DNA of 64,000 bases from Escherichia coli (lineage in GTDB: Bacteria; Pseudomonadota; Gammaproteobacteria; Enterobacterales; Enterobacteriaceae): the NCBI RefSeq assembly GCF_036507355.1, contig NZ_AP027877.1. One strand, given 5' to 3'. Position 1 is the stretch's first letter; the number at the start of each line of letters is the position of its first letter. Under the pieces are notes generated by a model, which did no database searches, had not been told where the DNA came from, and saw only the letters and a list, made by a program, of their open reading frames with translations. Shown in pieces: positions 17,439 to 18,261 of the stretch. Made by a program: the position numbers and the translations under genes.

Positions 17439-18261
17439 CTATTTCTTCTCTGTAATTTTTACACTGTTTTCCAACTGCTTGATGCTGACCTGCGGGGTCG
17501 GCAACTCCTCAGGCATGGTTCCGCCAAGTTCCTGAATGGTTTGCCTCACCTTGCTACCCACGTCAAAGTGTGTGGTATTAGCTTGCTGTTTTGAATTCAC
17601 GCCATCCCGCTTGAGTTTTTCTTCTGTTTGGGTAGCTCGAAAGAGATTAGCCGCCAGTTCTGTTGAACCCATATGATCCAGGATCTTCTGACTCTTTTTC
17701 AGCCCCTTCCGCTGATGGATGGCTTTCTGATCTAATCCACCATACAGCCCCGGTAACCATGATTCTGAAATATGGCGAAATCGATAGCTGTTGCTACCCC
17801 AGCTTGCTGCGCTGCCTCAACTAATTGTTTGTTATGTTCTTTCAATTCATTTCTCAGAAAAAGACGCTTTTCGTCTTCACGAAGTTGCCTGAAAGCTTCA
17901 TCGTCAGCCAGCTCCTGCCGTCGGGTCTGGATAGCAAAATAAGTTTGTCCTGCCGCAATAACCGGTTTCGCAGGGTCGCCGTTTTGTACTACCAGGTAAC
18001 AGGCATAGCGGGAGAGATGAACATCTTCAAGTTCTCGTTGAGCCCTGAACCTAATACAACCATTTTGGTGGTTTCAACGAAATGGTCAGATGCAGCTTGA
18101 TTGCTGGCTTCGCACGCTTGAGTCGCGCGGGTCAGTACCTTTTGAAAACTGCGCCAGTCCCGATAATCCAGTAACGGTGCCAATTCTCTCGCTGACCAAA
18201 ATTCTTGCCCTTCAGTGCCATAATGCCGTATCTCTTCAAAAGGTTGATGATGTTCGTTCAT
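17439..18261 (-). pseudogene. dinD: DNA-damage-inducible protein D, disrupted by frameshifts
   Basis: N-terminal fragment (MNEHHQPFEEIRHYGTEGQEF..., ORF 17989..18273) and C-terminal fragment (MGSTELAANLFRATQTEEK..., ORF 17439..17672) in different frames with the middle unreadable as one frame. Confidence 0.65.

Follow-up and report, generated by a model that had tools for sequence, protein, structure and literature searches.

A double-frameshift dinD pseudogene allele segregating in Escherichia coli

The dinD gene of the Escherichia coli genome analyzed here is interrupted by two 1-bp deletions and belongs to a double-deletion haplotype that, together with its linked SNPs, is carried by roughly 80-140 of 5,426 complete E. 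coli genomes, a share of about 2-3%. According to our analysis, this copy is a natural, inherited pseudogene allele that was lost neutrally or near-neutrally, with dinD being a dispensable gene, and we assign a probability of about 0.9 to this reading; the neutrality of the loss is an assumption. The double-frameshift form is an already known, PGAP-annotated polymorphic pseudogene allele that segregates in E. coli. It involves no new mechanism and no new kind of element, and the case is real but ordinary. All positions given below refer to the window, i.e., the whole stretch of 64,000 nucleotides of contig NZ_AP027877.1 that was analyzed.

Structure and SOS context of the dinD copy

Aligned with the intact dinD of ECC-1470, the window copy shows six substitutions and exactly two gaps, each of 1 bp and located in a run of G. 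At the DNA level, the copy is about 99% identical to intact orthologues (6 SNPs and 2 gaps over 825 nt), and it is free of scrambling, internal nonsense mutations and large deletions. The gene extends on the minus strand from an ATG with its A at 18261 to a TAG stop, the final base of which is at 17439 (Table 1). A single ORF of about 274 codons is lacking. Instead, six-frame translation shows that the native start frame encodes 73 native residues and, out of frame, 17 more before it ends at a stop (17989-17991), resulting in a product of 90 aa. Because three frames are needed to read the gene and the first stop appears after 90 codons, we consider the copy a pseudogene, and thus a non-functional member, of the DinD family. 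When the two missing Gs are restored, a DinD of 274 aa is obtained that is identical to ECC-1470 at 272 of 274 residues, the two differences being N38S and A44T. The amino acids of segment B are those of ECC-1470, with the SNPs G315A, G441A and G471A being synonymous.

The original prediction had placed a broken dinD at 17439-18261 and described recognizable N- and C-terminal DinD segments on either side of a stretch that cannot be read in one frame. The coordinates are exact and both terminal segments are indeed recognizable. The middle part, in contrast, is a clean block that is merely read in a different frame, and the description of the gene as degraded into fragments overstated the damage, which consists of two 1-bp deletions in an otherwise intact gene.

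Table 1. Positions of dinD, its two deletions and the neighboring features in the window.
Feature	Position	Strand	Description	Basis
dinD pseudogene	18261..17439	minus	823 bp vs 825 bp in the intact gene; three frames needed	alignment to intact alleles
dinD deletion 1	18043-18045	minus	CDS 217-220, GGGG to GGG, codons 73/74; C3 left on plus strand	
dinD deletion 2	17748-17751	minus	CDS 512-516, GGGGG to GGGG, codons 171/172; C4 left on plus strand	
dinD segment A	18043..18261	minus	codons 1-73 in the ATG frame; truncated Bro-N	translation
dinD segment B	17752..18042	minus	codons 74-171/172 in a second frame; stop-free block of 98 codons	
dinD segment C	17439..17747	minus	codons 173-274 and native stop in a third frame	translation
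LexA (SOS) box of dinD	18305..18324	minus	AACTGTATATAAACACAGTC; CTG-N10-CAG retained	upstream-region comparison
ligB pseudogene	14852..16533	plus	1682 bp vs 1683 bp; 1-bp deletion GG to G at 16138/9, CDS 1288, codon 430	
yicG	16530..17147	minus	intact, between ligB and dinD; no gap or stop vs OZ197100	
Integrative island	18505..26639		8.1 kb; inserted in the 3' end of yicC; empty site in OZ197100	
attL	18484-18504		TTATTCAATGTTCTGAATCTG; 21-bp imperfect direct repeat of the island	
attR	26619-26639		CTACTCAATATTCTGAATCTG; 21-bp imperfect direct repeat, partner of attL	
Island tyrosine integrase	25182-26441			
Island Toprim protein	22462-23388			
Island DUF927 protein	20759-22480			

Both deletion sites are homopolymers and the three dinD segments are otherwise undamaged, which would fit a gene that remains functional by programmed frameshifting or transcriptional slippage at the G runs. 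Expression of this kind would, however, require two independent +1 corrections, the stop arrives 17 codons past the first site, and runs of 3-4 G are to our knowledge too short for known slippage. Moreover, the site is not conserved across orthologues and the broken state is not ancestral. The great majority of E. coli dinD alleles consist of one 274-codon frame, and the interrupted form is therefore derived, in the minority and not conserved. We give practically no credence to a functional frameshifted dinD. The gene does not resemble a phase-variable contingency locus either. Among close relatives, contingency loci are switched on and off through length changes of an extended homopolymer or short tandem repeat tract, usually with 7-8 units or more; the runs in dinD comprise 3-5 G, and their only length change among the alleles examined is the loss of one G.

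Intact DinD (PcsA) is a LexA-regulated SOS product, a Bro-N protein that inhibits postsynaptic RecA filaments, and we know of no marked phenotype of dinD null mutants. Intact orthologues reach 488-504 bits against the NCBIfam equivalog model NF008573 ('DNA damage-inducible protein D', cut-off 242), and the window sequence matches this family as well. The Pfam domain Bro-N (PF02498) spans residues 10-105 in intact DinD and residues 10-68 in the 90-aa fragment. The latter covers only profile positions 1-59 of 96 and is thus an incomplete domain. A sequence search of the PDB with DinD returned no match.

PMC6590174 includes dinD in its list of LexA-regulated genes for which an SOS box is known, and PMC4457935 cites Uranga et al. 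(2011) for DinD as a RecA-filament regulator. In the window, the SOS box AACTGTATATAAACACAGTC differs by two substitutions within the 20-mer from the common AACTGTATATAAATACAGTT. This variant is shared with OZ197100 and is not found in the pseudogene carriers O145:H28 and 720632. Because the promoter region and the core of the LexA box (CTG-N10-CAG) are kept, the pseudogene locus is probably still transcribed during the SOS response, as judged from the sequence. A promoter and terminator consensus scan over 17150-18650 gave no match, and no RNA family reached its gathering score in an Rfam scan over 14000-27600.

Distribution and origin of the allele

Among complete E. coli genomes, up to 141 contain an exact match to an 80-mer across deletion 1, and 134 contain one to a 66-mer across deletion 2. 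All of the latter matches had a coverage of at least 80%, and the site of deletion 2 therefore lies inside them, while the counts of 141 and 145 genomes are upper bounds that may contain a few partial-coverage matches. A span of 362 nt over both deletions is 100% identical in O145 RM9872 and EC22. In an evenly spaced listing of the matches to this span, rank 1 and rank ~80 were at 100% and rank ~160 was at 98.9%, which puts the number of genomes at or near 100% at about 80 to 160. At the protein level, the 90-aa product with its deletion-1-specific tail occurs in at least 1,000 contigs (NCBI, JGI, ENA, Logan), and a 77-aa ORF that starts at Met198 in the C-terminal part of dinD and is called as a separate product likewise occurs in at least 1,000 contigs.

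The window carries this haplotype, i.e., G3 at CDS 217-220, G4 at CDS 512-516 and the SNPs A30G, A113G, G130A, G315A and G471A. Other carriers are O145:H28, O169:H41, O18ac:H14, 'ST540', 720632 and EC22, and their sources include humans, cattle, cheese and guinea fowl. PGAP labels the 823-bp gene as "dinD, frameshifted" in O145:H28 RM12581 (ECRM12581_RS23245) and 720632 (CXX37_RS15995), and the dinD of O169:H41 bears the same label. Lineage-specific decay, as had been proposed for dinD, is not compatible with a haplotype that is present in several serotypes and sources and is annotated there. In the literature on dinD pseudogenes, frameshifts or Bro-N, we found nothing that describes the double-frameshift allele.

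Single-nucleotide deletions in homopolymers are errors typical of 454, PacBio and nanopore data. The three lesions at this locus (in G4, G5 and, for ligB, GG) are all 1-bp deletions in same-base runs, and the searches of genomes, contigs and proteins returned no second case of the ligB deletion. It could accordingly be argued that all three are sequencing or assembly errors and that the genes are truly intact. For dinD, this is contradicted by numerous independent complete genomes and at least 1,000 contigs with the same lesions and SNP haplotype. As identical lesions are present in many independent assemblies from mixed data sources, the dinD deletions are not sequencing errors, and error correction would not recover the continuous frame that the original prediction had named as its refutation. 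The few 1-bp indels and the lack of any further frameshifted gene in the window also fit a noisy assembly poorly. Apart from the island, the window and OZ197100 are colinear, with only six 1-bp indels in 56 kb. Three of these six are intergenic and attributable to OZ197100 or neutral; those at 17338 and 18361 are OZ197100's own, since at these positions the window agrees with ECC-1470. None of the other 50 backbone genes of the window is shortened or shows a gap or internal stop compared to OZ197100. We regard error as an extremely improbable explanation of the lesions as a whole, and it survives only for ligB. The dinD frameshifts should consequently not be "corrected" as sequencing errors.

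With dinD taken as a true pseudogene allele, its formation may be outlined as follows. Replication slippage would have removed one G from the G4 run and one from the G5 run and thereby inactivated the gene. Deletion 1 is predicted to truncate DinD within the N-terminal Bro-N domain, with the part downstream probably remaining untranslated. The two lesions appear to have accumulated stepwise. The dinD of OZ197100, which PGAP also labels "dinD, frameshifted", carries deletion 1 only, along with all six SNPs, and deletion 1 on its own on the same SNP background suggests that it preceded deletion 2. The window allele is identical to that of O145:H28 over CDS 1-540 and differs from it at positions 543, 546, 547 and 571, where the window has the bases of the common intact-type alleles. 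This change from O145:H28-identical to intact-type sequence suggests recombination, with a putative junction after CDS 540. This allele is now segregating across the E. coli population.

ligB, the island in yicC and the setting of the locus

The gene order of the window is yicJ-yicI-yicH-xanP-gltS-recG-trmH-spoT-rpoZ-gmk-ligB-yicG-dinD-[island]-yicC-rph-pyrE ... waa cluster ... lldP. None of the complete RefSeq E. coli genomes is identical to the window, the best ones reaching about 98.7-99.3%. The closest is OZ197100, with 99.25% identity over 1-18503 and 98.9% over 26619-64000. The position of dinD between yicG and yicC is kept, with yicC here being split off by the 8.1-kb island in its 3' end. 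Divergence from OZ197100 is patchy, which is a signature of a recombination mosaic: yicC (26619-27481), mutM (33006-33815), waaA (34341-35618), cysE (58621-59442) and trmL (59495-59968) show 95.6-96.3% identity, and pyrE, rpmB, rpmG, gpsA, secB and gltS are 100% identical. The waa (LPS core) cluster at 36031-44215 contains a family-8 glycosyltransferase and an LPS N-acetylglucosaminyltransferase beside rfaL and presumably resembles the R3 core type.

LigB is an accessory NAD-dependent ligase, and the window gene is 99.6% identical to the intact ligB at the same position in OZ197100. The predicted product of the frameshifted gene consists of 429 native and 24 out-of-frame residues and has lost the C-terminal 131 residues, with the adenylation domain (115-283) and the OB domain (312-386) lying upstream of the break. 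These 131 residues can be aligned colinearly with the C-terminal region of NAD-dependent ligases of known structure; a sequence search of the PDB with the LigB C-terminus gave no match. If the frameshift is real, the accessory ligase would lose its C-terminal DNA-binding region.

An exact 70-mer across the ligB deletion matched none of 4,296 complete E. coli genomes, and an exact 40-mer was absent from species-representative genomes and metagenome contigs. Exact protein look-up yielded no identical record of the out-of-frame tail, and what a homology search with this tail matched were frameshifts located elsewhere, in noisy assemblies. The deletion is thus private to the window genome among the genomes searched. 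Considering how few indels the window contains, it is probably real, although it could be an assembly error. In two other island-bearing contigs, ligB is likewise split, at different positions (L009 13963-15644, 260+307 aa; L013 13743-15539, 505+85 aa), indicating either that ligB is also recurrently broken or that these are errors of draft assemblies.

As had been predicted, dinD and ligB are both disrupted without involvement of an IS element: both are frameshifted according to the alignments, no insertion or scar was detected at either gene, and the locus is colinear with OZ197100 except for 1-bp indels. With yicG alone between the two genes and the ligB lesion being private to the window genome, it might appear that a gene decay of this lineage's own removed two neighboring genes of DNA metabolism. 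The dinD allele, however, is common to several serotypes with intact ligB, the other 50 genes of the window are intact, and we estimate that two of 52 genes would fall within two positions of each other by chance in about 8% of cases. Since all dinD-pseudogene carriers that were examined have an intact ligB, and none of the other genomes searched carries the ligB deletion, the two events are independent and very different in age, the ligB frameshift being a separate and much more recent one. A joint decay is hence very unlikely, and we return to the reading of dinD as an inherited allele. The dinD frameshifts do not indicate that the genome of this strain is decaying.

Nor do they testify to an effect of the adjacent island. 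The island is inserted about 220 bp upstream of the dinD start, outside the SOS box, and provides a replacement C-terminus and stop for YicC, which still has 287 aa. Besides the proteins listed in Table 1, it encodes an AlpA-type HTH protein and several small ORFs without assigned function. At the empty site in OZ197100, the two BLAST segments overlap by 20 bp. Other E. coli harbor variants of the island at this position, which in O145:H28 is taken by a different island. A link between the island and the decay of dinD, which the original prediction had placed next to each other, was rejected: island carriers mostly have an intact dinD (J6, L009-L017), and 720632 harbors the pseudogene without the island. 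Presence of the island is thus not associated with the state of dinD, and their adjacency is coincidental.

Recurrent dinD lesions and relation to known alleles

Further lesions of dinD are common in E. coli. Deletion 2 alone is present on a background of the 2014C-4587 / O104:H4 C227-11 type, where it yields a 176-aa product (132 contigs), and on an H9Ecoli-type background (12 contigs), each being otherwise identical or near-identical to a known intact allele. Because these deletion-2-only alleles occur on distinct, otherwise intact-like SNP backgrounds, the G5 tract has suffered at least three independent hits. A 155-aa truncation and a 200-aa form with an in-frame deletion, in which ...EAAQQ is joined to ANTTH..., were each recorded in at least 1,000 contigs, and 235 contigs encode a form of 236 aa. 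In the contig L016, dinD is gone, and in L008, a more distant relative, it has been replaced by other genes. Since so many other lesions are common across E. coli, we consider dinD a dispensable and frequently damaged gene.

The 200-aa variant (L013 12236-12838; protein P0069) has an in-frame deletion of 74 codons that looks repeat-mediated judging from the protein sequence, in which QQA is shared by the joined ends, and it may represent a functional short form rather than a pseudogene. In L008 (12065-13922; backbone about 89-94%, same island), genes for a LysR-family regulator and a protein with a metallo-beta-lactamase fold occupy the position of dinD. In addition, dinD has two deeply divergent N-terminal (Bro-N) allele classes, one of the ECC-1470/window type and one of the K-12 MG1655/J6 type, which both score as DinD equivalog. 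They show about 110 differences, mostly in the first 250 nt, and are nearly identical in the remainder. The divergent region comprises CDS 30-250, corresponding to about 18010-18230 of the window, and was also seen in L003 (29434-30258), L010, L012 and L017; an 80-mer taken from it matched just 2,813 of about 4,700 dinD-bearing genomes.

The recurrence of the lesions raises the possibility that loss of dinD is selected, with the G5 tract (CDS 512-516) acting as a slippage hot spot that silences an SOS-induced RecA inhibitor. Deletion 2 on at least three distinct dinD backgrounds is in line with this, all the more as recombination would instead require a conversion tract of less than 45 nt, and public assemblies commonly contain each of at least six types of dinD lesion, several independent ones of which occur in hundreds to thousands of contigs. 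Yet most genomes retain an intact dinD, the double-deletion haplotype having reached only a few percent of complete genomes (~2-3%), and the large contig counts may just mirror heavily sequenced clones such as O104:H4 and O145:H28. Runs of G4-G5 are also far below the length of classical contingency tracts, and we found no fitness data on the loss of dinD. Selected loss therefore strikes us as unlikely. If true, it would suggest that losing an SOS-induced inhibitor of RecA filaments is advantageous in some niches, which goes beyond a neutral loss. A gene that has been broken repeatedly and in many ways could provide input for a population-genetic test of relaxed vs antagonistic selection on the modulation of RecA by DinD.

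Among the known alleles, those of O145:H28 RM12581 and 720632 are closest to the pseudogene of the window; RM12581 has both deletions and all six SNPs, and 720632 has both deletions and the SNPs of the window except G441A. Both pseudogenes reside at the same yicG-dinD-yicC locus and have the same length as the window copy (823 bp). The single-lesion alleles of OZ197100, C227-11/2014C-4587 and H9Ecoli involve the same slippage sites but contain one lesion instead of two. With the intact DinD of E. coli, the window copy shares the orthologous position, the sequence and the upstream SOS box; it differs in that its frame is broken twice and that its native start yields 90 aa at most.
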